A stretch of DNA of 64,000 nt, from positions 455,937-519,936 of the forward strand of contig OZ242029.1 in assembly GCA_965205015.1 (NCBI GenBank). The letters are read 5' to 3'. The position numbers were made by a program, and so were the translations under genes. Source of the DNA: Candidatus Poribacteria bacterium. GTDB lineage: Bacteria; Poribacteria; WGA-4E; WGA-3G. A model generated the notes under the pieces. The model saw only the letters and a list, made by a program, of their open reading frames with translations. It searched no databases and was not told the DNA's origin. The first letter of the stretch is position 1; each line of letters begins with the position of its first letter. Below, piece by piece: positions 5,958-64,000 of the stretch.

Positions 5958-6291
5958 AATTGATAATCTTTTTAATGATCGAAAAAGGGTATAAAACACT
6001 ACCCTTATCTGACGAATAAACTTAGAAAGGAGTTTTCAAAATGCGTCAGTACGTTTTGTGTTTAACGGAGGCAATGCCTCACGCTGGAGATGAACGTGAC
6101 AATTCTTTGGGGGATTGGATCTCCCTGAAGGCACGGGCATCTAAAATTGCCAATGCATGTCGTTATTGGACGAAGACCCGATTATGGAGAAGGCACAGAC
6201 CGAGGAGTGAACAAGCAGGCATCCTCCGTTACGGAACGGAAGGAGGGGTGCGCGCCTTCGCTTGAGAAACTCCTCTCTTGAGGAGACAAGC

Positions 6292-6882
6292 ATGTTACAC
6301 ACTGACGAACAGTTGATGCTCTCTGTGAAGGATGGAAACAGAGATGCATTCCGAATTTTAACCGAGCGGCATTATACAAACACTTTAAATTTTATCTATC
6401 GATTTGTCAAAAACCGGACGCTTGCGGAAGACCTCTGTCAAGAGACGTTCCTACGGGTGTGGCGCTGTGTGCCAACCTATCGCCCAATTGCGAAATTTAG
6501 AACGTTCCTCTATCACATCGCCAAAAACGTTTGTTTGAAACAGTTAGCGAAGGACCAGAGAACACCGCAGATCGAATCTTTAGATGCACCCTATAGCGAT
6601 GAAGATGAAAACTCTCACCCCGTTGCGGTTGCTGTCGCAGACACCAACTACTCTCCAGAGGCGCTGTTGATCGCCAAGGAGACTTACGAGGCAATTCAGG
6701 CAGCAATCAACAAACTGTCGCAAGAACATCAAGTCGTGTTTCGGCTGACAGAAGTTCAAGGATTGTCTTACCAAGAAGTTGCCGAGATCGTTCAATGTCC
6801 GATTGGCACTGTTGCCTCACGTAAAAACGCTGCGATTCGACAACTCCGGAAATTTTTGGCACCCTACAGGACCAGTTTATAA
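6292..6882 (+). CDS. ECF (sigma-70 family) RNA polymerase sigma factor
   Basis: Region 2 (FRILTERHYTNTLNFIYRFVKNRTLAEDLCQETFLRVW) and region 4 (LTEVQGLSYQEVAEIVQCPIGTVASRKNAAIRQLRK) are both present. The start is taken at the ATG encoding MLHTDEQ. No anti-sigma gene is adjacent. Confidence 0.85.
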   Translation: MLHTDEQLMLSVKDGNRDAFRILTERHYTNTLNFIYRFVKNRTLAEDLCQETFLRVWRCVPTYRPIAKFRTFLYHIAKNVCLKQLAKDQRTPQIESLDAPYSDEDENSHPVAVAVADTNYSPEALLIAKETYEAIQAAINKLSQEHQVVFRLTEVQGLSYQEVAEIVQCPIGTVASRKNAAIRQLRKFLAPYRTSL

Positions 6883-19305: not shown

Positions 19306-19314
19306 CCATTTCTC

Positions 19315-21942
19315 CTAACGTTTCTCGACCCGGAAACTGGCATCCAACGCCTTTTCAACTCGGACTTGCGATTCTTCAAGGTGCGCAAAACTGTAATCGT
19401 CAAGGTTACCTCTGGCATTTTGAAGTACGCGCTGTATCTTACCCCTGATTTGTCCGAGATGGAGACGTGCAAGCGATCGCGCATCTTCAGGCGTGCCACT
19501 GTCGGCTTCCAACACCAGTTTGATGAGTTGCTTCAAGTGCTCACGCTGCAAACCGCGACGGAAACTGGAGATGAACGCATCTGAATTCGACCACTGCTTC
19601 GCACCCGCATCCCTCCCGAGTTCGACCCAGACTGCATCCGTAATGCCTGAAAAGAGTTCTGGCAGTGTGAACGCCTCCTCACCCTTAGGGAACTTAAGTT
19701 CAGCGTCCTGAACGCGGGACAGAACCGAGGGATAAAGCATGCGTTCCAAGATGAGGGTTTGATTGCGCAGAATAACATCATGCACCGGATAATCGAAACG
19801 TGTAGAGGTCCAACTATCTCCGCCCCAATCACTCCAACGGGTAATTGCCAGACTATTGAGGAGTTCGGGCGAGAAACTGAAGGCTTTATCTGAAAGGGCA
19901 TATTCCTTGATGAATTGGAGTGCCTCGCGTTGTTTCGCTGCTGGCACAGGCACAAACGGTAGACGCCCATTCTCATCACCCCGATGATCGCGATGGTGAT
20001 ACTGCCCACCGATGTATCGGCTTGCGAGATACATTGTGAAACCGTGTTCATACAGCAGACTCCCAAAAGCACGCCTGACCCGCTGATAGCCCATCCCTTC
20101 CTTCGCAACTTTGTCGGCAATCTTATCCCAGAGTCCCACAACGACCTCGCGTCGTTGCTTAGCAAACGCAAGCGGATCATCACCGAGGTCCCACCGATTT
20201 ACCAGTGGATCGAGGTCTCTGAAGCGGTACCCATAAGCGTCTTCATCTGTACCATAAGTGAGTTCTGATGATGCAACACGGGAAGCGATCTCACCTAACG
20301 CTTTCAATTCACCTTCGGGTTTGCTGGCATCAATGGGTTTATAGGCGTACTCGACCACCCAGTAATCCCAAGGTCCGATCGTCTTTGTATAGTAATCCCC
20401 CTGTTCCTGACCTTCCGGTGCGATATTCACGGCATCGTATTCCATAACGGAGCCGATAAGTGCTTCGCCCTTCTTTTTGTTCAAGTCGTCAAGAGAGAAG
20501 ATCGTACTCGCTTTAAAGTTGTGGCGGAATCCCAACGTATGTCCGACTTCGTGCATCGTTAACGTCTTGAGTGCCTCCCCAATGAACTCCTCCGGGAGCT
20601 CACCGTCTTCGTCAGCCAAACCCCGTGCCTGCAAGACACTTGCCATAAAGCCCATCTGCCGTGCTAATCCGGATGCGATCTGACATTGGAAGTGTGAAGA
20701 GTGGTCCATCGGGTGGTCGCGTTCATGTGCTACCTCATCAAAGAACGTCGTATACTCGCGCTGCCAGTACCGGATCCAACTTTCACCGATAAGGATATCG
20801 GCATCCAAGATCTGTCCCGTCAACGGGTTCACGCGAGAGGGACCGATCGCGAACCCCGCGCCAACCATCCAACGAATCGTATTGTACCGCGCATCTTCGG
20901 GGTCCCAGTCCTCATGGTCTTGCTGAATCCGCGCTTCAATCGCATCGGCAAAGCCTATTTTTTCAAACGCCTTGTTCCATTCCAGAATCCCCTGTCGGAC
21001 ATAGGGACGGTAGCGATGCGGTACGGTTTTCTCAATGTAGAAGATGATCGGTGCTTTTGGGGGTGAAAGTTTCGCATCTTTGTCGGCTTTCTCCAAATGC
21101 CAGCGGTTGACATACCGGATAAAAGGGGCATCACTGGTTTTAGACGAATAGTCTTTGACCGCCGTCATAAAATGTCCGAGGCGATCATCAGCCAATCGGG
21201 GACGATAATTGTTCTCTGGAAGTCCAGCGAGACTGTAGTGCAGCGTCAACTGGATCCCACGACTGTCCGGAATGGTACTCATATTCCTTTGGGAACTGTA
21301 GACAGCATTGACTTTTAACTCAACGTTCTTCGGGAACGCCTTGACTGCTCCCCACGTACTCCGCGTTTTGTCGAAGCGGGCATCAGATGCAATACGGCGT
21401 GCCAAAGGCGGTAGGTCGGATATGAAAACCGGAGAGATGTTCACCAGCACGCTCTTCCGTTGCGGGTGGATGCTTTCAATCTTGAGGGAGAACAGCACGG
21501 AGTCGTTGTGCCCTAAGTCAACCGCTTCTGCAATCGGTGTCCCTTTGTCCGCACGGAAACGCACATTTTTTCGCACCAGATGCACCTTGTCCCCGACACG
21601 CCGCCAGACGAGCATCCACTCCTCCAGCGTCATCCCTGAAAGGAGGAATCCTTGCCCCAGACCGCGCGCAACGCTAATCATGCACAGAAAGGGCTTGTCC
21701 AACTGGGAGGGTTGAATTTCGCAATAGAGGTTCTCTTTTTTCTGGTACAGTTTGAAAAAGCCCTCGTAACTTTTACTGTCCTCGGTCACCTTTGAAAAAT
21801 CTTCAAACTCTTTCTTCTTTTTTGCGGGTGCTTCCTGTGTCGTCGGTTTTGCGGGTTGTGTCGCTTCCTGAGCAGATACCGAAAAGCAAAAAACCCCTAT
21901 TAGAATTAGACAGATCCAGAAAGTCAATTGATATCGCATCAT
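19315..21942 (-). CDS. Secreted zinc-dependent metalloprotease (DUF5117/DUF4953-type)
   Basis: A signal peptide, an HEXXH motif (MHEVGHTLGFRHNF), length 875 aa and overall organisation matching the Bacteroidetes-type zinc metalloprotease family. Confidence 0.8.
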   Translation of the reverse strand: MMRYQLTFWICLILIGVFCFSVSAQEATQPAKPTTQEAPAKKKKEFEDFSKVTEDSKSYEGFFKLYQKKENLYCEIQPSQLDKPFLCMISVARGLGQGFLLSGMTLEEWMLVWRRVGDKVHLVRKNVRFRADKGTPIAEAVDLGHNDSVLFSLKIESIHPQRKSVLVNISPVFISDLPPLARRIASDARFDKTRSTWGAVKAFPKNVELKVNAVYSSQRNMSTIPDSRGIQLTLHYSLAGLPENNYRPRLADDRLGHFMTAVKDYSSKTSDAPFIRYVNRWHLEKADKDAKLSPPKAPIIFYIEKTVPHRYRPYVRQGILEWNKAFEKIGFADAIEARIQQDHEDWDPEDARYNTIRWMVGAGFAIGPSRVNPLTGQILDADILIGESWIRYWQREYTTFFDEVAHERDHPMDHSSHFQCQIASGLARQMGFMASVLQARGLADEDGELPEEFIGEALKTLTMHEVGHTLGFRHNFKASTIFSLDDLNKKKGEALIGSVMEYDAVNIAPEGQEQGDYYTKTIGPWDYWVVEYAYKPIDASKPEGELKALGEIASRVASSELTYGTDEDAYGYRFRDLDPLVNRWDLGDDPLAFAKQRREVVVGLWDKIADKVAKEGMGYQRVRRAFGSLLYEHGFTMYLASRYIGGQYHHRDHRGDENGRLPFVPVPAAKQREALQFIKEYALSDKAFSFSPELLNSLAITRWSDWGGDSWTSTRFDYPVHDVILRNQTLILERMLYPSVLSRVQDAELKFPKGEEAFTLPELFSGITDAVWVELGRDAGAKQWSNSDAFISSFRRGLQREHLKQLIKLVLEADSGTPEDARSLARLHLGQIRGKIQRVLQNARGNLDDYSFAHLEESQVRVEKALDASFRVEKR

Positions 21943-22209
21943 CTCTCCTCCTTATTTCATTACCGATAGACAAATACGCGTGAGTGCTACCAGTGTGAGA
22001 GGTTTAGGTGTCTTTTTCCGCGCCAATCCGTTTCTGCCGTAGGTTTACCGTCCGAAGAGGGATAGAAGGGTGTTGGCACAGACATGATTTTTTTCCGCAG
22101 GGTGCTACCTCCTCAAAGGATTATCAAACTGCCAAGACTTTCGTCATTAAGGATAACACACAAGGTGCGAAATGTCAATTTGCATCAAGGTCTTCTTGTT
22201 ATCCCCACT

Positions 22210-22965
22210 TTACTGATAATGAATCCGCCGATTGCCATCGAATGAAAACCTGGGCCAATCACGTTCCCAGTTTTCGGAGGCGTAAGGGATATAATGGCAC
22301 GCCAAGGCGTGTCTACGCGTTCCCGACTTCAAAATTTCCGCGCCCCCGTGGATTAACTTTCCATCAAATAGAATCACGTCCCCAGCATTCACCATCACCT
22401 GAACTGCGTCGGTTCCGTTTTCGTCGAAAACCTGTTTGACGGCTGGAAAATAACGGTTGTGCTGTTGCAACTCGTACGTCTCTCCGGGCAACAATGTCAT
22501 CGGCACATCATTTTTCGTAATCAATCGACCCCGGTTCGACCCCGGCTGGACTATCAGGGGTCCATTATCTTCATCAACACGAACCATCGCAAGCCAAGCG
22601 GATATGCAATCGGGTAGATAATACTGGTCTTGATGCAGCGGATGCTCCGATCCTTCATAAAAATGCATCGTTTGGATGCCTTCCGGTTCCCCACCGAAAC
22701 AATCCGCGAGCGGCTTATGTAAGCGCGGATCAATAAGCATATCCAGCACGACGGGATCGTAAAGATGCTGATTAAAGGTTCGAGACCCGTATTTATCCTG
22801 TTGAAAGAACCCCTCAAGTTGCTTGTGACCTGTGTGCAGGTCTTCCATGTGCTTAACAAAACGCTGACATTCCTCTTGCGAGAAAACACCTTCAAGAACG
22901 AGATACCCATTCTCTTGATAAAATGTTTTTTGTGCAGGTGTCAAACCTGTCTTTTCGGATGCCAT
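22210..22965 (-). CDS. Phytanoyl-CoA dioxygenase (PhyH) family oxygenase
   Basis: HQDQYY ... LIHGG facial triad spacing within a PhyH-like fold. Confidence 0.75.
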   Translation of the reverse strand: MASEKTGLTPAQKTFYQENGYLVLEGVFSQEECQRFVKHMEDLHTGHKQLEGFFQQDKYGSRTFNQHLYDPVVLDMLIDPRLHKPLADCFGGEPEGIQTMHFYEGSEHPLHQDQYYLPDCISAWLAMVRVDEDNGPLIVQPGSNRGRLITKNDVPMTLLPGETYELQQHNRYFPAVKQVFDENGTDAVQVMVNAGDVILFDGKLIHGGAEILKSGTRRHALACHYIPYASENWERDWPRFSFDGNRRIHYQ

Positions 22966-48175: not shown

Positions 48176-48318
48176 ATCTGAAAGACAGAGGTTTACTGTG
48201 GAGGAACTAAGTCTTCGCAAGGCGCACGCAAGCGAGCGTGAAAGTTTTACCCATTTCCAGATGGAGAAAAGGTAATAGGCACACGCCGTGTGCCGTCGCT
48301 GGAGCATATAGATCCATA

Positions 48319-49272
48319 ATGGCTATTGATTTCGTTGAAGCACTCTCCACAGATAACTTGACTGCCATAAGAGCAGCCCCTAAAACCGATGTTCACTCCC
48401 ATTCTTTTTTAAGTGCACGTCGAGAGAATGCAGAGCGTTGGCTCGGACGTCCGCTCACCAAACCGCCTCTCAAAATGAAAGGACTTGGCGGGATGATGGA
48501 ATACATAGATGCTGCTTTAGCACCGCACTTAGAACACCGCCAAGGTTTTGAGTTCATTGTGGTGTCAGCGATAGATGACGCAGTCCAAGATGGTGTCGTT
48601 ATACTTGAAATGAGTTTCGACATCCGGTTGCTTAAGTTTTATCCGGGGGGGTTGACCGAACTTCGCGCATTTATTGAACTGTTAGTTGAGCGGTATCGGG
48701 AGCACATTGATTTGCGTCCTGAACTCGGCGTTGCGCGCGAGTGTGCCGCCGATCCAAAATGGATGAAATTGGCACATCAAGCAATAGAATTGGCGTTTTT
48801 TCAATCAATCGATCTGTATAGCCATCAAGAGGCGTGTGCACCTGAAGCCGTGCAGTCCTTATATGCCAAGGCACGCGAAGTAGGGATGAAACTCAAAGCA
48901 CACGTTGGCGAGTTTGGCGGTGCAGAAGAAGTCCGACGAACCGTCGAAGTCTTGGATTTGGATGAGGTTCAACACGGCATTGGTGCTGCGGAATCGGTTG
49001 AAGTTATGCGGTGGCTTTCGGAGAATCAGATACAATTGAACGTGTGTCCAACGAGCAATGTGATGTTAGACGCAGTGCGGGATCTCGCCTCACATCCGAT
49101 CCGCATCTTATTTGACAACGGTGTGTCGGTGACCATTAACACAGATGATCTGATGATATTCGGTCAGAGCGTCTCCGAAGAGTATCGGAATCTTTACCGC
49201 GCAGGCGTCTTCAGCGCGCAAGAATTGGACGATATTCGGTGCGCCTCTCTCTCACCTTCGCCAATTGCGTAA
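48319..49272 (+). CDS. Adenosine/AMP deaminase-family metallo-dependent hydrolase
   Basis: A metal-binding DVHSH, a mid-region HVGEF and a C-terminal TINTDD, matching ADA family positions. Confidence 0.75.
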   Translation: MAIDFVEALSTDNLTAIRAAPKTDVHSHSFLSARRENAERWLGRPLTKPPLKMKGLGGMMEYIDAALAPHLEHRQGFEFIVVSAIDDAVQDGVVILEMSFDIRLLKFYPGGLTELRAFIELLVERYREHIDLRPELGVARECAADPKWMKLAHQAIELAFFQSIDLYSHQEACAPEAVQSLYAKAREVGMKLKAHVGEFGGAEEVRRTVEVLDLDEVQHGIGAAESVEVMRWLSENQIQLNVCPTSNVMLDAVRDLASHPIRILFDNGVSVTINTDDLMIFGQSVSEEYRNLYRAGVFSAQELDDIRCASLSPSPIA

Positions 49273-49884: not shown

Positions 49885-50148
49885 GTCAGTTCACAGATTT
49901 CCAAAATTTACGACTATATCGCAAAACGCAATTCCCACGCGCCGTTTTGTTTCTCCGAAATATAGGCAATCGGCAATTTATTCTGTTTCAAGCACTTACC
50001 TCACGAAACAATTCCAAAAAATCCATTTTTTTTTATAAGATGCACGTTTTCTATCCCAAAATTTTGTCTTTAATAATTAAGTGCACAGTGATACAAACGT
50101 GTTGGATTTTTGAATTTTAGAAAACCGACATTCAAGGAGTCGTAAAAA

Positions 50149-51918
50149 ATGTCAACAGAGAATCCAAAGGCTGTTGGAAAGCGATTTTTAAAAGGTGTTT
50201 TCCGATACTGGCCCCAGATTGTTAAAACCACGTTGTGCATGACTGTAATGGTGGGTTTCTCGCTGCTGATACCTCTTTTTACAAAATTGGTAATAGACAG
50301 AGCGATCACACAACAGGACCAAAAATTGCTCTGGATCGTCTGCCTTGGCGGTGTTGGTTCCATCTGCGTGTATGTTTTACTTTCTCTTATACGTGACCGA
50401 TTCTATATCTATACGACAAGGCGGATCCTGCTCGATTTCCGGAATCGGTTTTTCCAACACCTCCTGCGGCTTCCGATGCCGAGTCTCACCAAAAGGCAAA
50501 CGGGGGAGTATGGTTCGATGGTCATTAACGATGTAGATGCGATTCTGACGAGTGCAACGTATAATGTCCTTCATTTCTTTACAGACACGCTGTCAGCGGC
50601 CGCCATTATCACGATAATGTTTTACTTCAATTGGAGGTTGGCACTGATCGCACTGATTGTTGTTCCGCTTAATGGACTCACTTACGTCTACTTTCGACCG
50701 CATTTTCATAAGGCGACCCTAAAGAGACAAGAAGCGACAGCGGCGACGTTCTCATACGTGCAGCAAACTTTATCAGCGATTCGACTGGTAAAGTCCTTTT
50801 CGGCAGAGAAACATCATAACCGCTCCTTCTTTCGAGAATCCAAATTGTTGCTTTTTGCCCAAGCAAAGGTCTCGGTTTTAGAATCGATTGCTGGTAACAT
50901 TAGTCAGTTCGTGGTAAGAACGCAACCCATCGTGATTATCTGCTTTGGCGGTCTGGAAGTCTTAGAAAACCGATTGACGATCGGTGAGTTGGTTGCCTTC
51001 TCGGCATATCTTGAATACCTGTCTGCTCCCGTATATCGTATCCTCCACTTCCACCTTGGACTCGCCGCGACGAAAGCGGTCCTCCAGCGTCTTTTCCAAG
51101 TTCTTGATTTACCGGATGAACACAATGGAAACGAAGATCTGGAAAAGAAAAAACTTGACGACGTCGTCGGGCAGATTCAGTTTCAGTCTGTACGTTTTGC
51201 ATATCAAGAGGTTGAAGTTCTTAAAGACATCAATTTGGAGGTCCGTCCAGGTAGCATTGTCGCGCTTGTTGGACCTTCGGGTTCCGGCAAAACCACACTG
51301 ACGAATCTAATTCCTCGCCTGTATGAACCGAATGCCGGTCGTCTTCTGCTTGATGGACATGATTTGCAAACTTTAGACCTGAAATTCCTAAGACAGCAGA
51401 TCGGCATTGTGCCACAAGAACCGGTTCTCTTTGATGTGAGTATCAAAGATAATATCCGATATGGGTGTCCCTCCGCAACAGACGAGGCCGTCTACGCCGC
51501 AGCGCAAGCTGCGAATATACACGAGTTCATTGTGTCTCTGCCGGACGGATACGAGACGCAGATCGGTGAACGCGGTTTCAAGTTGTCTGGTGGTCAAAAA
51601 CAGCGCGTCGCGATTGCCATGGCAATCTTGAAAAATCCAAAAATTTTAATCTTGGATGAGGCAACGAGCGCGCTGGATTCACAATCCGAGACACTCATCC
51701 AAGAGGCACTCCAAAATGTCATGAAACAGCGGACGACCTTTGTGATCGCTCACCGCCTCTCTACAATCCAGAATGCAGACCAGATTGTGGTTATGGATCA
51801 GGGAGAGATCGTCGAAGTTGGAAGTCATTCTGAACTGTTAGCGTCCGGCAAACTCTATAGTCAATTATATCGTGAGCAGTTCAAATCGCTCTTAGATTCA
51901 CCAGAAAGGAACGTCTAA
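50149..51918 (+). CDS. ABC transporter permease/ATP-binding fusion protein (MsbA-like exporter)
   Basis: 6 TM, Walker A GPSGSGKTT, signature LSGGQKQR and Walker B ILILDEATSALD. AAGGAG precedes the ATG. Confidence 0.85.
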   Translation: MSTENPKAVGKRFLKGVFRYWPQIVKTTLCMTVMVGFSLLIPLFTKLVIDRAITQQDQKLLWIVCLGGVGSICVYVLLSLIRDRFYIYTTRRILLDFRNRFFQHLLRLPMPSLTKRQTGEYGSMVINDVDAILTSATYNVLHFFTDTLSAAAIITIMFYFNWRLALIALIVVPLNGLTYVYFRPHFHKATLKRQEATAATFSYVQQTLSAIRLVKSFSAEKHHNRSFFRESKLLLFAQAKVSVLESIAGNISQFVVRTQPIVIICFGGLEVLENRLTIGELVAFSAYLEYLSAPVYRILHFHLGLAATKAVLQRLFQVLDLPDEHNGNEDLEKKKLDDVVGQIQFQSVRFAYQEVEVLKDINLEVRPGSIVALVGPSGSGKTTLTNLIPRLYEPNAGRLLLDGHDLQTLDLKFLRQQIGIVPQEPVLFDVSIKDNIRYGCPSATDEAVYAAAQAANIHEFIVSLPDGYETQIGERGFKLSGGQKQRVAIAMAILKNPKILILDEATSALDSQSETLIQEALQNVMKQRTTFVIAHRLSTIQNADQIVVMDQGEIVEVGSHSELLASGKLYSQLYREQFKSLLDSPERNV

Positions 51919-52129: not shown

Positions 52130-54118
52130 TTGATGATTTACTTCACGTCCTATTGGAAAATTTTACTGAGTGCTATGGCTTTTTTCATAGCGACACACCT
52201 CGTTGCCGAGTCTCAGACGATAGAAGCGATTAAACTTCACACGCCTCCGACGATTGATGGTAAACTTGATGATGCGTGTTGGCAACGCGTGACAGCGGTC
52301 GACGCATTTAAAGTTGCGGAGTTGGAGACCACAGTGCCAGACAAAACGGAAGTCTATCTCGGATTCGATGACGAAGCCCTCTATGTCGGTTTTCGTTGTG
52401 TTCAAGAAGCAGCATCCATCATTGCGAACCAGACGCGAAGGGACGGGAGCTTTCAATATGAGGACCATGTTGCCATATATCTCGATACACATCATGACCG
52501 CCGGCGTTCCTATTGCTTTGCTGTGAGTCCCCTTGGCATACAACGCGACGAAAAACAGGGTGACTTGGGGTGGGATGGCGAATGGAGTGCCGCTGCAATC
52601 ATAGAACCGTCCGTGTGGACGGTCGAGATGAAAATCCCTTACGACATACTTGATATGCCGCAGGCTGCGAAACAGACATGGGGACTTAACCTCGTGCGCC
52701 GTCATCAAAACCTCGATCGGACCAGTATCTGGGCGGACACGGGTGTTAACGTTTCTGACGCGAATCAATTCGGGACGTTGACGAATCTTGAATTCAATCC
52801 CCAAGATACTGGAAAGAAGTTCCAGATCGGTGGGTACTTCTCCGGTAAAGCTGAGGATTTCTCAACAACAGAAGATCTCTCAAGGCGATTAACAGCGACG
52901 GTCGGTGGGGATGTCTCCTATAAACTAACACCCAGTACCGCTTTCATTGGCACAGTGAACCCCGACTTTAGCCATATTGAGTCGGAGGTTCAGGGAATCG
53001 TTTTGTCCGATCTGGAGCAACGCTTAACCGACCGACGTCCCTTCTTTCAGGAAGACGGACGAATTTTCAGAGCACCTATTGCCCTTTTTTACAGTCGACG
53101 CATCGGTGAGATGGCATACGGGGCGAAACTCATCGGTAAAACTGGAAAAGCAACGTACGGATTGATGAATGTCAAAGAGACAGCGGATGAGAGTCACAAC
53201 GTTTTGCTACGCGGACTTTGGGACGCAGGCAATGCATCCTCACTGGGACTCTTTTTCGCCTCGAAAGAGATACCGGGGTCGTATAACAGGTCCGTCGCTC
53301 TTGATGGCTCCGTTCGTTTACCGAAGGCACTGAACTTTGTTACATCCTATGCAGGAAATTGGGAACCGCATCAGGAAAACACACGTGCCTTCATCGCGGA
53401 AGTCAAGCGGAAAGGCAACCCCATTTTGAGTCTCGTCTATCGCGACTTCTCGGGAGGCTTCAATCCTGTCAATGGCTACGTTCGGCTCACGGACATTCGG
53501 CAACCAAGTTTCTGGGGGGTGTATCGTTGGCCCGTCGAGAAAGGCTTTTTGCGAAGCGTTAACTTCGAGTCTGTCCAATCTGTGACGTGGAATCAAGACG
53601 GCGAAAAAACACGAGGCAACCACTTTCAACTGATCGGTTTCGATCTGGGAGAAAAGATAGAGACGGGATTCTTTTACAGAAACTGGTCTTATGATGTTCA
53701 CTCGAACTGGATAGTGGCAGCACAGACAACATATAACCGTCAGAGACCTGACCGCATTTTTGTCGTCTATCAACACGGCGAGTTTGAGGGTGCCACGGCA
53801 ACATTTGTTACGACAGCGATGAACTTAATCCCGTTCCGCTTTTTGTCGGTAGGTATTGAAGGCGAAAATCTCTGGCAGACGTTTCCAGACGGACGCAAGA
53901 CTCGCAATTTTTCTGTTCGTGCAAGCATGAATCTTGAGATAGGAACCGAAAGGTGGGTAACGGTTCGGCTGCGTTCAGCACGTGAACATAAACCGAATTT
54001 CAATGCGGTCTTTAAATATACTTTTATTGAAAATCTTGTGTTATACATTGTCTACGGGGACCAGCACGCCCCTGAGACAATCAACCAACTCTTTACAAAA
54101 ATTGCCTTCAATTGGTAA
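52130..54118 (+). CDS. Secreted CBM9-like/DOMON-like + DUF5916 beta-barrel protein (paralogue of 27849-30002)
   Basis: A signal peptide and N-terminal IDGKLDDACWQRVTAVDAF...LYVGFRC...WTVEMKIPY. Confidence 0.6.
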   Translation: MMIYFTSYWKILLSAMAFFIATHLVAESQTIEAIKLHTPPTIDGKLDDACWQRVTAVDAFKVAELETTVPDKTEVYLGFDDEALYVGFRCVQEAASIIANQTRRDGSFQYEDHVAIYLDTHHDRRRSYCFAVSPLGIQRDEKQGDLGWDGEWSAAAIIEPSVWTVEMKIPYDILDMPQAAKQTWGLNLVRRHQNLDRTSIWADTGVNVSDANQFGTLTNLEFNPQDTGKKFQIGGYFSGKAEDFSTTEDLSRRLTATVGGDVSYKLTPSTAFIGTVNPDFSHIESEVQGIVLSDLEQRLTDRRPFFQEDGRIFRAPIALFYSRRIGEMAYGAKLIGKTGKATYGLMNVKETADESHNVLLRGLWDAGNASSLGLFFASKEIPGSYNRSVALDGSVRLPKALNFVTSYAGNWEPHQENTRAFIAEVKRKGNPILSLVYRDFSGGFNPVNGYVRLTDIRQPSFWGVYRWPVEKGFLRSVNFESVQSVTWNQDGEKTRGNHFQLIGFDLGEKIETGFFYRNWSYDVHSNWIVAAQTTYNRQRPDRIFVVYQHGEFEGATATFVTTAMNLIPFRFLSVGIEGENLWQTFPDGRKTRNFSVRASMNLEIGTERWVTVRLRSAREHKPNFNAVFKYTFIENLVLYIVYGDQHAPETINQLFTKIAFNW

Positions 54119-54206
54119 TTCACCTTATAATCAGATTGTATAAACCGTTCTAATTAAATCTATTGTCGAGTGCGGACACTCGAACCTACAGTTTAGGGGG
54201 TTTCTG

Positions 54207-57185
54207 GTGGAAAGAGAAAATGATGCGCAACTCATTCAAGATACGTTGGCCGGTAATGATGAAGCCTTTAATGCCTTGGTGCGAAAGTACCAAAAGAGCG
54301 TTCACGCCCTTGCCTGGCGAAAAATCGGTGATTTTCAGGACGCTGAGGAGGTAACCCAAGACACTTTCCTTCGCGCATACAAAAACCTCTCAACGCTCAA
54401 GAATCCTCATCAATTCGCTGGATGGCTGTATGTCATTGCAAACCGGCTTTGTCTCAATTGGATTCAAAAACAGAAATCTGCCATACAATCCTTAGAGGAC
54501 ACGCCTATGAAAGAAATCGAGAATGCGTCGTATACACATTATGAATCCGAGCGACGTGAAACAGCAGCCGGCGAGTATCGCCTTGAACGCGCCAAAAAAC
54601 TGCTCGCAAAACTGCCGGAGAGTGAACGCACTGTCGTCACCCTCTACTATCTTGGTGAGATGACCACTCGGGAGATTAGCAGATTCTTGGGAGTGTCCGT
54701 AAACACCATCACCAGTCGCCTCCAGCGCGGACGAAAGCGTTTACAAGACAATCAAGAACATCTCATCAAAGAAGTCCTCGGCGGCAGACAGATACCGGCG
54801 CGTTTAAGCGAGGGCATCAAGCGGCAAATCGCCGATATGAAACCCACACCTTCGCCCGCTGGAAAACCGCTGTTACCCTGGAGTGCTTTCGGCACGGCTG
54901 TGGTCGTAATTATATTGATGCTCGGGGTTAGCAGCCGATATCTTGTCCGCTTTCAGAGACCCTACAACTTCGAGGCACAATCTGAACCGACCATTGAAAT
55001 CATTGAGGCACCTATCGTTTTTGATGTCAAATCGAAACCCGATGTGCGAAAGCAGGTCGGACGCACAACATCCTCAGACAAAAGCATGGGAGCCAGCCTG
55101 CAGCCTTTTGAGGACGTTTCAACATCTAATGTACAAGACGATTCCGCTAAATTTTCCAGAGCACAGTGGATACAGGGAAATACACCACCAGGGGGGCATG
55201 TCCGCAACATCTTCGCTGGACCTGAAGGCACGCTGTATGCTGTTTCACCAACAGGGTTGTACAGATTTACAGTCGGTGCGACCGCATGGACACGCATGAA
55301 CGCAAATGTCCCGATTGATAAATCTTTCATGCCGATGGCAGCATCTAAAGGTACCCTTTATATCGTCTCTGTCGATGAAATATTTACCTCGGGTGACAGA
55401 GGTGAGACGTGGAATCCGATAGGTTCTCGACCCAAGGGATATGCTGTTGGGCTTATCATCAGGGATTCACTACATACGCCGATTACGATGTATCTTGCAC
55501 TCCAAGATAAAGGAGTTTTCCGTTCTACAGACGAGGGCATAAAATGGGATACCCTCAATGACGGACTGAGAAACGAAAGGATTTCTGCCATAGCGGCCGT
55601 TGGAGAAATAGTGTTTGTTGGTACGAACCGCGGCCTCTACCGCCTCGATTCAGATATTTGGAAAAAGTTGCCGGTCGGTGCGTCACAAACCGTCTATTCC
55701 TTGGCAGTCTTTAATAATAATCTCTATGTTGCCACGGGACCTGATCTACCCCATCACGACTCAGATATTTGGAAAAAGTTGCCGGTAGATGCGTCACAAA
55801 CCGTCTATTCCTTGGCAGTCTTTAACAATAATCTTCATGCTGAAACAGGTCCCTATCGACTCGGATTCACGCCAATAAAGGTAGGGAAACCAGAGGCCCC
55901 GAAAAGCGAGTCACATTCAGTTAGAATCTTCCACTCGGCTGACTTGGGAGCGTCATGGACCGAAATAACGCATATAGATAAAACTGACTCGCAGGCGGAA
56001 GCATCCGGTATAACCATTTTAGCTGCCGGTAAAACGATCTTAGCCCTGGGAGCCACACAATCTCGTTCGACAGATGGTGGACATACATGGACAGAGTTTG
56101 AAATTGACACGGATAGGCACATGACCCACAGTCTTCCGGTATCCGTAGCGGCGAACGAGACGACATTTTACAAAGCGGGTGCATCCGGTATTCATCGCAC
56201 CACTGATAGCGGTAAATCGTGGCATCTATTTATGGATGGAATAGCAGGAACACGGGCAAACAACCTGATTGTTTTCAACAACAGATTATATGCCCATACC
56301 GGCTACGAAGTTTATCAATCAACAGATGAAGGTGGGACTTGGAAAAAACTTTCGATCGCCAGGGAGCCTGCTACGAAGGAGACGCCGTCTGACCCCTTAA
56401 AACAGGACAGGTTAGGCGTCTATACCTCTTTCGATTCACAGTTAATGGTTGACGGTAACACACTTTATTTTGTTTCACCTGAAAGGCACCTCTTGCGAAT
56501 TTACCGTTTATCTGCAGACGGCAATACGCTCATCCCAGTTCAAGACTTTTCGACTTCTGATCATGAATCCGTATCTTCTCTGCCTGAAAAAGAGATGAAA
56601 GTCAAAGCGATTGTCGTCAGTAACAGTGTGTTCTACGCGGAATACAGACAAAGACTTTTCAAACGGAAACTCGGAGATCCGAAATGGACAGATACCGGAC
56701 TGATAAACACTGATAAACCGCCGAATGCGAATACTGGTTTCAAGGTAGCAATTTCAGAAGAAACCGTCTACGTCGGTAAGCGAGATGGTCGACTGTTTCA
56801 ATCGCTGGATAACGGAAAAAACTGGAAAGACATTACGCTGAGTCTGCCCCTTCGCTTTACGCACTTCAACGAGATCCTCTTTGTCGGTTCAACGGTTTAT
56901 GTCGCAACAGACGCAGGTGTTTTGGCTTCACAAACCGGCGAACACTGGCATGTAATCACTGATAACTTCGGAGAGCGTCCCATTATAGACAAATTTGCTA
57001 TAGAGGGTATCACCGTTTACAGTGCTGGCGATGCGGGCGTCTACCGTCTGGATAAACTCGGTAAATGGAAGCAGATTTCCTCAGAAGTTTTAGGTGAAGT
57101 TATTTCGCTCGCCGTCATTAACAATCGACTCTATACCGCCATTAATGCGCGCGGGATTTTTCATATCTCACTCGGTGAAGAATAG
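54207..57185 (+). CDS. ECF sigma factor fused via a single TM helix to a large extracytoplasmic BNR/Asp-box beta-propeller domain
   Basis: The first ~190 aa carry sigma region 2 (DTFLRAYKNL...WLYVIANRLCLNW) and region 4 (LGEMTTREISRFLGVSVNTITSRLQRGRKRL). A TM helix (LLPWSAFGTAVVVIILMLGV) follows at about residue 230. Downstream there are at least six S/TxDxGxxW repeats (GDRGETW, TDEGIKW, TDGGHTW, TDSGKSW, TDEGGTW, LDNGKNW). Confidence 0.75.
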   Translation: MERENDAQLIQDTLAGNDEAFNALVRKYQKSVHALAWRKIGDFQDAEEVTQDTFLRAYKNLSTLKNPHQFAGWLYVIANRLCLNWIQKQKSAIQSLEDTPMKEIENASYTHYESERRETAAGEYRLERAKKLLAKLPESERTVVTLYYLGEMTTREISRFLGVSVNTITSRLQRGRKRLQDNQEHLIKEVLGGRQIPARLSEGIKRQIADMKPTPSPAGKPLLPWSAFGTAVVVIILMLGVSSRYLVRFQRPYNFEAQSEPTIEIIEAPIVFDVKSKPDVRKQVGRTTSSDKSMGASLQPFEDVSTSNVQDDSAKFSRAQWIQGNTPPGGHVRNIFAGPEGTLYAVSPTGLYRFTVGATAWTRMNANVPIDKSFMPMAASKGTLYIVSVDEIFTSGDRGETWNPIGSRPKGYAVGLIIRDSLHTPITMYLALQDKGVFRSTDEGIKWDTLNDGLRNERISAIAAVGEIVFVGTNRGLYRLDSDIWKKLPVGASQTVYSLAVFNNNLYVATGPDLPHHDSDIWKKLPVDASQTVYSLAVFNNNLHAETGPYRLGFTPIKVGKPEAPKSESHSVRIFHSADLGASWTEITHIDKTDSQAEASGITILAAGKTILALGATQSRSTDGGHTWTEFEIDTDRHMTHSLPVSVAANETTFYKAGASGIHRTTDSGKSWHLFMDGIAGTRANNLIVFNNRLYAHTGYEVYQSTDEGGTWKKLSIAREPATKETPSDPLKQDRLGVYTSFDSQLMVDGNTLYFVSPERHLLRIYRLSADGNTLIPVQDFSTSDHESVSSLPEKEMKVKAIVVSNSVFYAEYRQRLFKRKLGDPKWTDTGLINTDKPPNANTGFKVAISEETVYVGKRDGRLFQSLDNGKNWKDITLSLPLRFTHFNEILFVGSTVYVATDAGVLASQTGEHWHVITDNFGERPIIDKFAIEGITVYSAGDAGVYRLDKLGKWKQISSEVLGEVISLAVINNRLYTAINARGIFHISLGEE
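55647..55840 (+). repeat. In-frame 111-bp tandem duplication inside the sigma-BNR gene
   Basis: Two consecutive copies start at 55647 and 55758 with about 93% identity, encoding DSDIWKKLPV(G/D)ASQTVYSLAVFNNNL... twice. Confidence 0.85.
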
Positions 57186-57209: not shown

Positions 57210-58151
57210 ATGGATTTCATTAAAGCACTCTCCACAGATAACTTGACCGCTATCAGAGCAGCCCCTAAAACCGACGTTCATTGCCACGCATTCTTCAGTA
57301 CACGATTAGAGAATGTCGAACGTTGGATAGGGCATTCCCTAACGAAGCCACCTCCCAAGATGAAAGGGGTTGAGGGAATGATGGCGTATGCGGACGCGGT
57401 CTTAGCAGCACCCATAAAACACCGTGAAGGTTTCGAGTTTGTCGCGGTGTCAGCGATGGAGGATGCCGTCCAAGATGGTGTTATCATGCTTGAAATGAGC
57501 TTCGACATCCGTCTGGTAGGGTTCTATCCTGACGGGGTGGCTGGGCTTTGCGCGTTTATTGAGACATTGGTTGAGCGATATCGGGGACAGACAGATTTAC
57601 GTCCAGAACTCGGCTTTTCTCGTGGAGATGCTGACGATCCGAAACTGATGACATTGGCGCACGAAGCAGTAGAATTAGGTTTTTTTCGCTCAATTGATCT
57701 CTATAGCCGTCAAGAGATCTGTCCACCTGCGGTTATGAAGCCGTTGTTTACACAAGCACGCGTAGCAGGAATGAAACTTAAAGCACACGTTGGTGAATTT
57801 GAAGACGCGGAGGAAATCCGACGAACTGTTGAAGTTCTCAATTTAGACGAGGTCCAGCACGGTATCGCTGCCGCAGCATCGACAGAAGTTATGCGCTGGC
57901 TCTCGGAGAATCAGATACAATTAAACGTCTGTCCAACGAGCAACGTAATGTTGGACGGTGTGTCGGATCTCGCCTCACACCCGATTCGCGTTTTATATGA
58001 TAACGGCGTGCCGGTGACAATCAACACGGACGATCTGATGATATTCGGTCAGAGTGTCTCCGAAGAGTATCGGAACCTCTACCGTGCAGGCGTCTTCAGC
58101 GCGCAGGAGTTAGACGATATTCGACGCGTGTCCCTTGAAGTCCTTGATTGA
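57210..58151 (+). CDS. Adenosine/AMP deaminase-family metallo-dependent hydrolase (paralogue of 48319-49272)
   Basis: DVHCH, HVGEF and TINTDD motifs. The 3' 230 nt are about 90% identical at DNA level to the other copy. Confidence 0.75.
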   Translation: MDFIKALSTDNLTAIRAAPKTDVHCHAFFSTRLENVERWIGHSLTKPPPKMKGVEGMMAYADAVLAAPIKHREGFEFVAVSAMEDAVQDGVIMLEMSFDIRLVGFYPDGVAGLCAFIETLVERYRGQTDLRPELGFSRGDADDPKLMTLAHEAVELGFFRSIDLYSRQEICPPAVMKPLFTQARVAGMKLKAHVGEFEDAEEIRRTVEVLNLDEVQHGIAAAASTEVMRWLSENQIQLNVCPTSNVMLDGVSDLASHPIRVLYDNGVPVTINTDDLMIFGQSVSEEYRNLYRAGVFSAQELDDIRRVSLEVLD

Positions 58152-61663: not shown

Positions 61664-64000
61664 ATGCGATGCCCAACAAATCGAGACAACACTCTTGCCA
61701 AAAAAGGAGTTCGCAGTCCACTTTACTTGATACTTATCAGTTGGATGCTGTTTTCAGTTGTTATTTCCGTAGGTTTCACCGATGAATTGAGCCTCGTTAC
61801 TGAAGTGGAGTTTCAACCCTTTGCATCAGCGACCCAACGACTCATTGAGGCGTTGGATTATCTCGGTTCACCCCTCTCTGAAGAAGACCTTTCAATAATC
61901 AAGGAAGCCTTGATCTCCGATGATCACACACAGGCGATTGTTGATATCCAAAAAACGCTTGACGCATACTGTTTAGCAGGTGTCAATATCAATCCTGAAA
62001 GCCGCGTGAAGGTGAAGGAAGGTCCGGTAGACAAGGAACTGATGCAGCGGGGTTGGCGCACCTTTTTAGTAAAAGTCCACAACGAGGCCGGCGTGACAGC
62101 CCCCTTAGCCGCAGAGAGTGGGAACGCGGCGCCCCTATATAAGCGTTCCACTGGAAGGCCTGACCCAGAGATGACTGTACCAAAAAGCGATATTCCGCAC
62201 CGGTTTCTCGATATTGTGGTCTATTCTAACCCGCCCTTGAAGGCGAGCCTTTCCGGACTGGAATTGGAATATCGTATTGTTCAACTCTATAGCCGCGATG
62301 CCGGCAAACGGGAAGCGATGCTCGGTTTCAACGTCGGTCAAGGGACCCAAGACATCGGCTTCCGCAGCGAAGTTCCTATCCTATTCGACTGTGTACCGGC
62401 GGTAAACGTAACGCTTGAAGTCTTGGACTTCGACGGAAAACCGACAACCGCGGGTTTTATCATTCGAGACGAATTGAACCGCGTGTATCCATCGCGCGGG
62501 CGACGCTTGGCACCCGATTTCTTTTTTCATAACCAAATCTATCGGCACAACGGCGAATCGGTGCTTCTACCACCCGGAAAATATAAGGTCGAGTACACAC
62601 GAGGACCGGAATACCGAGTCAAGACCCAAACCATTACCGTCCCGAATACCGAAACACATCAAGAGACATTTCATTTGGAAAGATGGATCCATATCGCAGC
62701 GGAAGGCTGGCGTTCCGGGGATCATCACGTCCATGCCGCGGGTTGCGCCCACTACGAAAGCCCTACCGAGGGTGTCACACCGGAAGACATGATGCGACAC
62801 ATTCTCGGAGAGGATCTCAACGTCGGGTGCGTCCTCTCGTGGGGACCCTGTTGGTATTACCAGAAGCAGTTTTTCGAGGGCAAAATCCACGAACTCTCGA
62901 CCGATGACTACGTGATCCGCTACGATGTGGAGGTTTCCGGCTTCCCTTCCTCACACGCAGGACATCTCTCGTTGCTTGCCTTGACTGAAGACGACTACAA
63001 CGGTACCGAGCGCATTGAAGAATGGCCGAGTTGGGACCTCCCCATCCTCCAATGGGCGAAAGAACAGGGCGCGGTAACGGGCTTCAGTCACAGCGGTTGG
63101 GGTTTGAAAGTGGATGGAGACGAGCTCCCCAATTACAACATGCCCCCTTTCGATGGCATCGGTGCTAACGAGTATATCGTGGATGTCGTTCACGACGTTG
63201 TTGATTTCATCTCTACTGTAGACACACCCGCTATTTGGGAATTGAGTATCTGGTATCATACCCTGAACTGTGGTTTCCGCACTCGAATCAGTGGCGAGAC
63301 GGATTTCCCTTGCATCTACGGTGAACGCGTCGGATTAGGTCGCATATACGTAAAAATGCCTGCGGGTTCCCTTGATTTCGATGCGTGGGCAGCAGGATTG
63401 CGAGACGGGCGTTCCTACGTCGGCGACGGTAAAAGCCATCTGCTGGACTTCACTGTCGGTGGTGTGCCAGTTGGCGAAAAGTCACCGACCGGACAACTCA
63501 GTCAGTTGGATCTGGAAGCACCCAACACAGTAACCATCACCGCTCGCGTCGCCGCACGGCTCAATGAAGCACCTAAGCCTGAGATACAGAACCGTCCGTT
63601 GGATCAAAAACCGTACTGGGATATCGAACGGGCACGCATTGCGGAAGAACGGAAAGTGCCTGTTGAACTCATCGTCAACGGTGAATCCGTCGAGACGCAA
63701 GAAATTGTGGCTAACGGTGAAATCATTCCTATTCAATTTGAGGCACCCATTGATAGGTCGAGTTGGGTGGCGTTACGGATTTTCCCCTCGTCTCATACGA
63801 ATCCGGTTTTCGTTATTGTCGATGGAAAGCCGATCCGAGCCAGTCGTAGAAGCGCGCAGTGGTGTTTGGAGGCAGTCGAAGTCTGCTGGAACGCAAAGGT
63901 TGATCGCATTCGAGAGGAGGAACGCGAAGCCGCCCGTACGGCATACAACGTAGCATCGCAGACATATCAAAAGATTCTCGAAGAATCCGATGTAGACTGA
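61664..64000 (+). CDS. Secreted PHP-like (CehA/McbA-family) metallohydrolase domain protein
   Basis: A signal/TM segment at the N-terminus, a GDHHVHAAGCAHY PHP-type His cluster mid-protein and length 778 aa. The stop coincides with the window end. Confidence 0.45.
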   Translation: MRCPTNRDNTLAKKGVRSPLYLILISWMLFSVVISVGFTDELSLVTEVEFQPFASATQRLIEALDYLGSPLSEEDLSIIKEALISDDHTQAIVDIQKTLDAYCLAGVNINPESRVKVKEGPVDKELMQRGWRTFLVKVHNEAGVTAPLAAESGNAAPLYKRSTGRPDPEMTVPKSDIPHRFLDIVVYSNPPLKASLSGLELEYRIVQLYSRDAGKREAMLGFNVGQGTQDIGFRSEVPILFDCVPAVNVTLEVLDFDGKPTTAGFIIRDELNRVYPSRGRRLAPDFFFHNQIYRHNGESVLLPPGKYKVEYTRGPEYRVKTQTITVPNTETHQETFHLERWIHIAAEGWRSGDHHVHAAGCAHYESPTEGVTPEDMMRHILGEDLNVGCVLSWGPCWYYQKQFFEGKIHELSTDDYVIRYDVEVSGFPSSHAGHLSLLALTEDDYNGTERIEEWPSWDLPILQWAKEQGAVTGFSHSGWGLKVDGDELPNYNMPPFDGIGANEYIVDVVHDVVDFISTVDTPAIWELSIWYHTLNCGFRTRISGETDFPCIYGERVGLGRIYVKMPAGSLDFDAWAAGLRDGRSYVGDGKSHLLDFTVGGVPVGEKSPTGQLSQLDLEAPNTVTITARVAARLNEAPKPEIQNRPLDQKPYWDIERARIAEERKVPVELIVNGESVETQEIVANGEIIPIQFEAPIDRSSWVALRIFPSSHTNPVFVIVDGKPIRASRRSAQWCLEAVEVCWNAKVDRIREEEREAARTAYNVASQTYQKILEESDVD

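Follow-up and report, generated by a model that had tools for sequence, protein, structure and literature searches.

An ECF Sigma Factor Joined by a Transmembrane Helix to a Predicted Double β-Propeller Represents an Apparently Poribacterial Family of Modular Sigma Fusions

Introduction

Sigma factors of the extracytoplasmic function (ECF) type that are tethered to the membrane or fused to membrane segments are already known, the recognized examples being IutY/ECF243, ECF48, ECF52, ECF53, ECF263, and ECF01-Gob. Here we analyze a gene of Candidatus Poribacteria that encodes, in one polypeptide, an ECF sigma factor, a single transmembrane (TM) helix, and a large extracytoplasmic domain containing Asp-box repeats. 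The gene lies at positions 54207..57185 (+) of a 64,000-nucleotide stretch of DNA (contig OZ242029.1 of assembly GCA_965205015.1, positions 455,937 to 519,936), which we call the window; coordinates are those of the window unless another locus is named.

In IutY of Pseudomonas putida (ECF243), an N-terminal ECF sigma domain, one TM helix, and a periplasmic sensing part form a single polypeptide, which is subject to site-1 and site-2 proteolysis by Prc and RseP and becomes constitutively active when truncated (PMC8999054). In the ECF48, ECF52, and ECF53 groups of Actinobacteria (e.g., SCO4117), the sigma factor is extended at its C-terminus by TM helices and an extracytoplasmic part that binds carbohydrate (PMC8999054; PMC5826349), and activation is predicted to be proteolytic (PMC8999054). 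Planctomycetes have ECFs in which a duplicated, closely similar sigma2/sigma4 core is followed by unrelated C-terminal extensions of widely differing size, and fortuitous capture of downstream sequence has been proposed as their origin (PMC7671368). ECF01-Gob has been placed among the ECF groups that possess an additional C-terminal domain (PMC5766207). For RsgI of Bacillus and Clostridium, release of the ectodomain is followed by cleavage by the site-2 protease RasP (PMC10556640). ECF263 is a group whose members have 5–7 TM helices. In ECF01-Gob, a TM helix is followed by WD40 repeats, and SigW is controlled by regulated intramembrane proteolysis (RIP). Studies of membrane-tethered ECFs are few, and, to our knowledge, the tethered ECF groups that have been characterized or well described all contain a recognizable anti-sigma element.

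Our literature search found no paper that links Poribacteria to sigma fusions of the kind described here or that describes their family, and Poribacteria go unmentioned in the main text of the ECF classification paper. Members of the family are annotated publicly only as “sigma-70 family RNA polymerase sigma factor” or “hypothetical protein.”

Results

The Fusion Is a Single Gene with an Intact ECF Sigma Domain

The gene is an uninterrupted open reading frame (ORF) of 992 aa with a GTG start and no in-frame stops, and a purine-rich, Shine-Dalgarno-like run (AGGGGG) is located 8 nt 5′ of the start. We delimited its parts with Pfam, NCBIfam, hydropathy, and comparison with homologs. The ECF sigma core (54276..54746, +) consists of region 2 (aa 24–90), an inter-domain linker, and region 4 (aa 128–180). 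An earlier note on this DNA had described both regions as intact, and both scored well above their Pfam cut-offs (Sigma70_r2, aa 24–90, 55.0 bits versus 24; Sigma70_r4_2, aa 128–179, 57.9 bits versus 25.7). The ECF superfamily model TIGR02937 scored 96.9 bits against an NCBIfam cut-off of 42.9. Neither Pfam nor NCBIfam matched a sigma region 1 or region 3 in the 992-aa protein, which therefore has the composition of an ECF (group 4) sigma-70 factor: regions 2 and 4 only, above curated thresholds. In a profile search of PDB sequences, the nearest solved relative of the core was SigW (5wuq, E = 1.2e-27); the SigW equivalog models PRK09641 and TIGR02948 were not reached (105.2 bits versus 209 and 91.7 versus 243.1, respectively). 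AlphaFold2 (AF2) modeled the core from an alignment of paralogs with per-residue confidence scores (pLDDT) of 88–95. Judged by its sequence, the sigma domain is functional-looking.

The same note had named a frameshift or unrecognized stop, separating sigma factor and propeller into two genes, as one observation that would overturn its reading. We rejected this explanation because the ORF is continuous and the fusion is kept in at least 120 homologs (51%–100% identity) and in 61 complete ORFs extracted from genomes. All of the best 120 database matches had identical Pfam domain content, most were full length (55%–100% identity over 100% of the query), and those with a named source were Candidatus Poribacteria without exception. 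The fusion of ECF sigma factor, TM helix, and Asp-box ectodomain, full length across its homologs, is thus real and under selection.

The window also contains a stand-alone ECF sigma factor of 206 aa (6262–6882), which is 26% identical to the sigma domain of the fusion. The gene 3′ of it encodes a HAD hydrolase, and no anti-sigma gene is recognizable next to it. Apart from this unrelated ECF, we found no further copy of the sigma segment or of the propeller in the 64 kb.

The TM Helix Is Flanked by Two Short Helices and by a Highly Conserved Stalk

A Kyte-Doolittle scan with a 19-residue window gave one peak (2.14 at aa 223–241; the next-best value anywhere was 1.5), in keeping with the single TM helix proposed earlier; a failed TM prediction, the other observation named in the note as overturning its reading, thus did not occur. 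The helix (aa ~221–243; 54867..54935, +), placed by hydropathy and conservation, contains the conserved residues P224, W225, G229, G240, and S242, of which P224 and W225 are invariant among paralogs. A single-pass TM segment with helix-destabilizing residues is a feature of RIP substrates; the N-in (type II) orientation is deduced from the cytoplasmic role of a sigma factor.

The TM helix is followed by a conserved juxtamembrane stalk (aa 244–290; 54936..55076, +), which we defined by alignment conservation and by comparison with paralogs and which has the sequence RYLxRFQ[KR]PY[SN]FEAQSEPTIEI..P..LD...KP..RNQ.GR. Its first ~25 residues, through PTIEI, are the most conserved part of the protein, exceeding even sigma regions 2 and 4. 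Mean column scores over an alignment of 66 homologs were 0.92 for aa 245–270, 0.86 for region 2, 0.89 for region 4, 0.76 for the post-sigma-4 linker, 0.84 for the TM helix, and 0.72–0.78 for the propeller. F249, Q250, P252, Y253, and A257 are invariant residues of the stalk, which is common to paralogs whose ectodomains are unrelated.

About 35–40 aa, without Cys or a zinc-finger motif, separate region 4 from the TM helix. They include a post-sigma-4 segment (aa 181–211; 54747..54839, +) that AF2 modeled as two short helices (aa 181–192 and 198–211; pLDDT 81–89 with the deeper paralog alignment) and that is, from the model, a candidate tether or in-cis inhibitory element. We found no likeness to anti-sigma, FecR, ZAS/zinc-finger, or SEAL sequences in the linker, TM helix, or stalk (Pfam, E up to 1; PDB phmmer, E up to 10). 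The HxxxCxxC signature of ZAS domains is absent, as zf-HC2 gave no match and aa 181–221 contain no Cys or His motif; nor is the segment of the FecR type, as FecR, DUF4880, and DUF4974 gave no Pfam match at E up to 1. A class I anti-sigma domain (four helices, roughly 80–90 aa) is not present in the ~35–40 aa between region 4 and the TM helix, and the stalk, which is predicted to be disordered and has no related Pfam or PDB match, does not show the SEA-like autoproteolytic fold of RsgI/SEAL. The phrase “sigma/anti-sigma-like,” which had been applied to the protein, therefore overstates what is there, given that we detected no anti-sigma domain. The accompanying remark that a separate anti-sigma gene is missing was accurate: Pfam found no anti-sigma gene or domain among the window neighbors.

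The two post-sigma-4 helices bear on an alternative in which they constitute a minimal in-cis anti-sigma that clamps regions 2 and 4, in the manner of the two-helix class II anti-sigma CnrY. The protein would then be a true sigma/anti-sigma fusion, relieved by a signal transmitted through the TM helix or by proteolysis. The cytosolic part of CnrY is about as long as the post-sigma-4 segment, both helices were modeled in the high pLDDT range given above, and the modeled sigma2/sigma4 arrangement is nearest to closed, anti-sigma-bound states (CnrH-CnrY, 4cxf, TM-score 0.71; SigW-RsiW, 5wur, TM-score 0.65) and fits holoenzyme states poorly (root-mean-square deviation of about 27 Å). However, the segment has zero sequence likeness to any anti-sigma in Pfam or PDB, and AF2 commonly yields compact models of ECF sigma factors whatever their regulation. 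We consider a clamp of this kind distinctly unlikely.

The Sigma-Linker-TM-Stalk Segment Is a Duplicated Cassette

With aa 1–276 as the query, we obtained 1800 proteins at E up to 1e-10. Of these, the best 120 were 63%–91% identical to the query over 92%–100% of its length, yet they were 271–481 aa long, and their C-termini were Kelch, LRR, BNR, or unrecognized. Paralogs remain alike past the TM helix, over the stalk and a Ser/Thr-rich spacer, up to a conserved [KR]FSTAQW junction at ~aa 320, and beyond this point the proteins are unrelated. On sequence grounds, we conclude that sigma domain, linker, TM helix, and stalk form a conserved, duplicated module (the cassette) that is joined to interchangeable ectodomains (BNR, WD40, Kelch, LRR, LRR+GHL15, and LamG). 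Among complete ORFs, proteins with the BNR double propeller have 960–1025 aa, those with Kelch ~645 aa, those with LRR ~700 aa, and those with LRR + GHL15 853–897 aa; a further class of 444 aa has no Pfam match in its ectodomain.

A scan of one genome per species yielded at least 584 cassette copies, confirmed by tblastn. The description of such fusions as rare is thus wrong for Poribacteria, and their attribution mostly to Planctomycetes-type ECF groups is incomplete, as fused membrane-bound ECFs occur elsewhere (IutY/ECF243 and ECF48/52/53; PMC8999054). The best 79 cassette loci were all from Poribacteria, with up to four loci per chromosome within the best 80, and tandem pairs of paralogs were frequent (loci L013, L030, L060, L061, L065, L067, and L071).

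We also searched 1.84 billion representative sequences with the linker-TM-stalk segment (aa 186–330, HMMER), which gave 245 clusters; among the representatives listed, 99 were at least 400 aa long (total lengths 405–1283 aa). A sigma domain was present in 96 of the 99, and in 90 the stalk segment began at residues ~180–199, right after a sigma-sized domain. The remaining three representatives without a sigma domain all start exactly at the linker and look like shortened gene calls. Free-standing stalk proteins, which would have pointed to an origin from a classical anti-sigma, are thus essentially lacking among these representatives; as the stalk is nearly exclusive to sigma fusions, it is part of the sigma cassette and not of a separate anti-sigma lineage. 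Regions 2 and 4 were found in all of 58 diverse representatives, 21 of which had BNR/Sortilin-type and 11 WD40 ectodomains, and LamG was the ectodomain of one family member whose complete domain table was obtained. The named members from this search were again Poribacteria. The family is large and strongly expanded, and it is apparently restricted to this phylum.

The Ectodomain Is Predicted to Be a Tandem Double Propeller

The post-TM ectodomain is ~750 aa long, and its propeller portion comprises ~670 aa (aa 321–992; 55167..57182, +). It contains six strict SxDxGxxW Asp-boxes (aa 395, 440, 577, 621, 705, and 866) and one relaxed Asp-box (aa 665), and the Pfam models Sortilin-Vps10 (56.7 bits), PSII_BNR, and DUF6242 each exceed their own cut-offs. 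AF2 with the full alignment gave a model of moderate confidence (mean pLDDT 61), in which the sigma domain and the blades had values of 65–87 and residues 193–326 were low; the propeller portion was modeled as about 14–15 four-stranded blades arranged as a tandem double propeller. The ~750-aa propeller of the earlier note is therefore correct as to the length and Asp-box nature of the ectodomain, and needs revision as to the propeller itself, which is shorter and predicted to be double.

When the model was compared with the PDB by Foldseek, the top 14 matches were GH74 xyloglucanases, which are tandem seven-bladed propellers (E = 4e-19 to 1e-16; target-normalized TM-scores 0.48–0.54; for 2cn2, E = 4e-19 and 0.52). 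They were followed by the periplasmic sensor propellers of Bacteroides hybrid two-component systems (HTCS) and by PorZ. A profile search of PDB sequences assigned the N-terminus of the protein to SigW and the C-terminus to GH74. The model thus matches the two seven-bladed propellers of the GH74 fold with the moderate confidence stated above, at an identity to GH74 of 12%–15% in structural alignment. Elsewhere, the double propeller of the window protein occurs almost only in sigma fusions.

These matches could be taken to mean that the ectodomain is mainly an enzyme, a membrane-anchored GH74-type glycanase, and that the sigma domain is a degenerate remnant or a mere cytoplasmic anchor. The GH74 xyloglucanases are the best matches by both structure and profile, and the NCBIfam glycosylhydrolase model F510_1955 scored 97.6 bits. 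That score is under the cut-off of 175, however, and at 12%–15% identity and moderate model confidence the alignment does not allow the pair of catalytic Asp residues in the GH74 cleft to be placed reliably. The sigma domain is conserved as much as or more than the propeller (0.86–0.89 versus 0.72–0.78), and the same cassette bears non-enzymatic Kelch, LRR, and WD40 ectodomains. We regard the enzyme explanation as highly improbable.

The first propeller contains an in-frame tandem duplication of 111 nt (37 aa; 55646..55860, +). Its copies (55646–55749 and 55757–55860) are 87% identical, and the repeat reads DSDIWKKLPV.ASQTVYSLAVFNNNL...; TRF missed it, and a second repeat search detected it. 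The duplication is found only in the closest orthologs (P0002 and P0012), and model confidence is low there. Another homolog, P0033, has an extra, different duplication of a blade segment. Because the one duplication is limited to close orthologs and a different one is present in P0033, the number of blades in this propeller clade appears to be evolving.

A Promoter-like Motif Is Shared by the Family and Co-varies with the Sigma Domain

We counted dyads and k-mers in the 250 nt upstream of 84 family genes. TCTTTAA was present in 41 of the upstream sequences and TGCAC-N17-CGTA in 15; counts in shuffled sequences did not exceed 4. A T-tract, ATTATGCAC, 17 nt, CGTATC, and TTTAAT follow one another upstream of ~38 of the 84 genes, in every ectodomain class. 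ECF sigma factors have a cognate bipartite promoter, which is usually autoregulatory. The family consensus, ATGCAC-N17-CGTATC-TTTAAT, is laid out like such a promoter, in which a spacer of 16–17 nt separates the −35 element from a CGT-type −10 element; the sigma-W promoter is TGAAAC-N16-CGTA.

We built a position weight matrix (PWM) from 18 instances upstream of paralogs (training scores 55–81) and scanned both strands of the window. The sole match was at 50030..50085 (+), with a score of 59.1 (the next best was 4.3), and a pattern search also gave one match. This family-specific ECF-type motif, at the head of the putative operon described below, consists of a T-tract, a −35-like ATGCAC (50040–50045), a 17-nt spacer, a −10-like TTTGTC (50063–50068; CGTATC in the family), and TTTAAT (50069–50074). 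Across 784 kb, all 70 PWM matches above 30 had the same orientation as the sigma gene (p about 2e-21, binomial test). Of 67 PWM matches in family loci, 28 were directly upstream of a family sigma gene and the rest preceded co-directional genes; ten sampled non-sigma genes with the motif encode an ABC-2 permease, LamG + lectin-fold, PD40, Kelch, and WD40 proteins, and a Trypsin_2+TPR protease. The motif is unlikely to be a mobile repeat or a housekeeping promoter, and we rejected both ideas in view of its single match in 64 kb of ordinary genes and its invariably sense orientation.

Variants of the motif are paired with variants of sigma region 4. Sigma-4 sequences with NTITSRLQRARKRLQEQ occur with the motif ATGCACGT...CGTATC, those with NT[VI]KSRLRRGR with ATGCACCC...CGTATC, and those of the Kelch class with ATGCACAC...TGTGTC. 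The association between sigma-4 class and −35 flank was complete (12/0 against 0/15; Fisher p = 6e-8, uncorrected for shared descent). This is what cognate sigma-promoter pairs would look like, and it is not proof of recognition. A cognate-looking motif that co-varies with the sigma sequence also speaks against a sigma domain reduced to a remnant or anchor of a glycanase.

Some motif copies precede other genes of interest. At L060 (2599–3684) and L071 (2852–3922), the motif lies before genes for secreted Kelch proteins that are 36%–37% identical to the Kelch ectodomain of the adjacent fusion; at this low identity, we rejected the idea that the ectodomain is a recent copy of the neighboring secreted gene. 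At L071 (6142–7992), the motif is upstream of a secreted Trypsin_2+TPR protease, a possible site-1 protease candidate.

The Motif Heads a Conserved Group of Genes

The motif in the window lies ~65–75 nt upstream of a gene for an ABC exporter of 589 aa with fused membrane and ATPase domains (50149..51918, +; ABC_membrane 143.7 bits, ABC_tran 125.5 bits). This gene is followed on the same strand by a gene for a 662-aa protein with the Pfam domains CBM9_1 and DUF5916 (52130..54118, +), by the sigma fusion, and by an adenosine-deaminase-like gene (57210–58151), with gaps of 211, 88, and 24 bp. The CBM9/DUF5916 protein has a signal-peptide-like N-terminus, no internal TM helix, and a C-terminal ...KIAFNW; from these features, we take it to be exported and possibly an outer-membrane barrel. 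Our literature search found no paper that mentions DUF5916.

From their position, the ABC exporter and CBM9/DUF5916 genes are putative members of one operon or regulon with the sigma fusion. An 85% identical ortholog (L080) has the same order of ABC, CBM9/DUF5916, and sigma genes, with the motif before the ABC gene (score 61.6). In a 65% identical ortholog (L082), the order is sigma, ABC, CBM9/DUF5916, and the motif stands before the sigma gene (39.2), with a weaker copy before the ABC gene (21.4). Both the three-gene association and the presence of the motif at the head of the unit therefore survive rearrangement.

Two elements lie close to the start of the sigma gene. A sigma-70-like match (54102–54131; TTGCCT-18-TATAAT, 10/12) overlaps the end of the CBM9/DUF5916 gene just upstream and could allow the sensor to be expressed at a basal level that does not depend on the signal; the number of matches of this kind nearby was not above chance (16 versus 11.4 ± 3.4 in shuffled sequence). 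A hairpin in the 88-bp gap (54166–54183; TCGAGTG-CGGA-CACTCGA) has a perfect 7-bp stem and a 4-nt loop, is not followed by a T-tract, and might serve in the processing or stability of the operon's RNA or as a partial attenuator.

The unit of ABC, CBM9/DUF5916, and sigma genes is flanked by two paralogous adenosine-deaminase-like genes (48238–49272 and 57210–58151), whose similarity to the A_deaminase profile is confined to its C-terminal half (positions 159–310 of 330). Both are present in L080 and absent from L082; the linkage of the deaminase-like gene is inconsistent. At L080 (16617–17168), a DDE transposase fragment and a protein-kinase-like gene are inserted 3′ of the orthologous operon relative to the order in the window. 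Near the permuted operon of L082 are a 146-aa ORF with sigma region 4 only (18947–19387) and, on the opposite strand, a 536-aa sigma fusion (20768–22378) that adjoins a LamG protein; as far as the sequences tell, these additional ORFs illustrate local clustering and decay of cassette copies. Elsewhere in the window, a 332-aa ORF (4911–5909) contains an RRXRR domain (PF14239, 109.5 bits), of a family usually associated with HNH-type endonucleases, and an ORF of at least 778 aa (61664–64000) runs off the end of the window and gave no Pfam match at E up to 0.01.

Discussion

The earlier note described the architecture of the fusion correctly. It missed the family to which the fusion belongs, the conserved stalk, the motif 4.1 kb upstream of the sigma gene, and the operon partners. 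Its suggestion that the sigma factor would be activated by regulated proteolysis or sense a ligand directly stays a hypothesis. We think it on balance probable that the protein is a one-polypeptide transmembrane signaling device, in which a tethered sigma factor is freed by stimulus-induced proteolysis and drives its own promoter. The membrane tether, possibly aided by post-sigma-4 helices that close regions 2 and 4, would keep the sigma domain unproductive. Binding of a ligand, for which a glycan is the likeliest candidate, or mechanical pull on the propeller would expose the stalk to site-1 cleavage, and a site-2 protease would next cut the Gly/Pro-containing TM helix. The freed sigma domain would bind RNA polymerase and transcribe from promoters of the ATGCAC-N17-CGT type, so that expression of its own operon, which includes the exporter and the CBM9 envelope protein, would rise through positive feedback.

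We infer proteolytic activation because SigW, the nearest characterized sigma factor, and fused ECFs such as IutY use proteolysis, as ECF48/52/53 are predicted to do, and because RsgI anti-sigma factors, which likewise pair a conserved juxtamembrane element with variable sensor domains, signal through ectodomain release and RasP cleavage (PMC10556640). The supposition that the stalk is a recognition site for a protease or partner fits its standing as the most conserved element of the protein, and the inference is supported by the Trypsin_2+TPR protease gene that lies under the same motif at L071. The weakest link in the chain is the ligand: a glycan is suggested by the GH74-like and HTCS-sensor-like fold of the modeled ectodomain and by the CBM9 domain of the neighboring protein.

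Several points weigh against this proposal. The steps beyond architecture, cassette, motif, and operon linkage are inferred only. The protein lacks an anti-sigma domain that would hold the sigma domain inactive, and tethering alone need not block access to RNA polymerase. As the net charge is +2 on either side of the TM helix, the topology with a cytoplasmic sigma domain and a periplasmic propeller rests on the function of the sigma domain. The stalk is predicted to be disordered (AF2 pLDDT <40) and matches no known autoproteolytic or protease-site family in Pfam or PDB. A regular-expression scan for an M50 site-2 protease motif found no match in 0.8 Mb of poribacterial DNA, a result that is uninformative. 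After intramembrane cleavage, clean-up by ClpXP would threaten a covalently attached sigma domain. The 88-bp gap directly 5′ of the sigma gene does not contain the family motif, and co-transcription from 4.1 kb upstream has to be assumed. The co-variation of sigma-4 class and −35 flank, finally, may owe some of its apparent significance to common descent, for which the p value is not adjusted.

The absence of an anti-sigma domain also fits an alternative in which the sigma factor acts while anchored, like ToxR, CadC, and TcpP, and proteolysis is not needed. A ligand would then alter oligomerization or the conformation of the linker helices, and the tethered sigma domain would bring RNA polymerase to DNA close to the membrane. 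The linker helices are conserved and modeled with confidence, as expected of a transmission element. The products of the regulated genes are exported or membrane proteins, and their insertion during translation would hold the DNA near the membrane. Against this, we know of no membrane-anchored sigma factor that acts without release. Only ~10 unstructured residues lie between the last linker helix and the TM helix, so that a holoenzyme would have little space to form; a passive spacer would hardly be conserved as extremely as the periplasmic stalk is; and the fused ECF IutY requires Prc and RseP (PMC8999054). An anchored mode of action therefore seems unlikely to us, and we retain release by proteolysis as the preferred explanation.

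A broader proposition, which we put forward tentatively and with some doubt, is that Poribacteria evolved a programmable signaling platform. The tether and a short in-cis helix would restrain the sigma domain, the stalk would be a new type of site-1 or force-sensitive release element, dozens of eukaryote-like repeat domains (BNR, WD40, Kelch, LRR, and LamG) would have been grafted onto the cassette as sensors, and the promoters would be matched by subtype. If this were true, a sizeable fraction of the eukaryote-like repeat proteins in these sponge symbionts would be receptors wired to transcription and not secreted host-manipulation factors.

The family is a natural experiment in swapping sensor domains onto a transcriptional output, and the cassette is a candidate scaffold for synthetic biology, with a single gene linking an extracellular binding domain to an orthogonal promoter. 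For the biology of sponge symbionts, it links signal transduction with the eukaryote-like repeat domains whose abundance in Poribacteria has long been noted. The motif permits genome-wide prediction of regulons, and in the window a likely regulator and promoter can be named for a conserved module of ABC exporter and CBM9/DUF5916 envelope protein.

How does the poribacterial protein compare with known systems? IutY shares the single-polypeptide layout, but it has an FecR-type anti-sigma and an FecR periplasmic domain and receives its signal from a TonB-dependent receptor, whereas the poribacterial protein contains no FecR or anti-sigma part; its sigma domain is SigW-like and not FecI-like, and it carries a double propeller. 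ECF48, ECF52, and ECF53 are alike in having a C-terminal TM extension and an extracytoplasmic domain (here one TM helix and ~750 aa). They belong to another phylum and have a ZAS-like zinc finger between sigma domain and TM segment, whereas aa 181–221 of the poribacterial protein contain none. SigW of Bacillus subtilis is the closest characterized sigma factor by sequence and structure, and the geometry of its promoter resembles that of the poribacterial motif; its regulator RsiW, however, is a separate ZAS protein, and the poribacterial protein reaches 105 bits where the SigW equivalog model requires 209.

RsgI/SigI follow the same logic as that proposed here: a conserved cytoplasmic module, one TM helix, a conserved juxtamembrane element, variable polysaccharide-sensing ectodomains, and multiple paralogs per genome. 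RsgI is a separate anti-sigma with a folded, autoproteolytic, SEA-like juxtamembrane domain, whereas in Poribacteria the sigma factor itself is tethered and the stalk is short, disordered by prediction, and unrelated. The GH74 xyloglucanases and the HTCS sensors of Bacteroides (BT4663 and BT4673) are also tandem double propellers and bind glycans in or near the inter-propeller region. They differ in that identity is 12%–15%, the target-normalized TM-score is ~0.5 for GH74 and ~0.28 for HTCS, and the poribacterial output is a sigma factor, not a kinase.

The closest evolutionary parallel is found in Planctomycetes. As those ECFs are described, Poribacteria are set apart in that they duplicate not only the sigma core but also the linker, the TM helix, and the ~100-aa stalk and spacer, and in that their ectodomains are swapped at one fixed junction (~aa 320). 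Relative to the tethered ECFs known so far, the poribacterial family is distinguished by a combination of features: it has no anti-sigma element, its TM-stalk segment is conserved and co-duplicated, its ectodomains are exchanged at a fixed junction, it is expanded, and its members share a sub-typed promoter.

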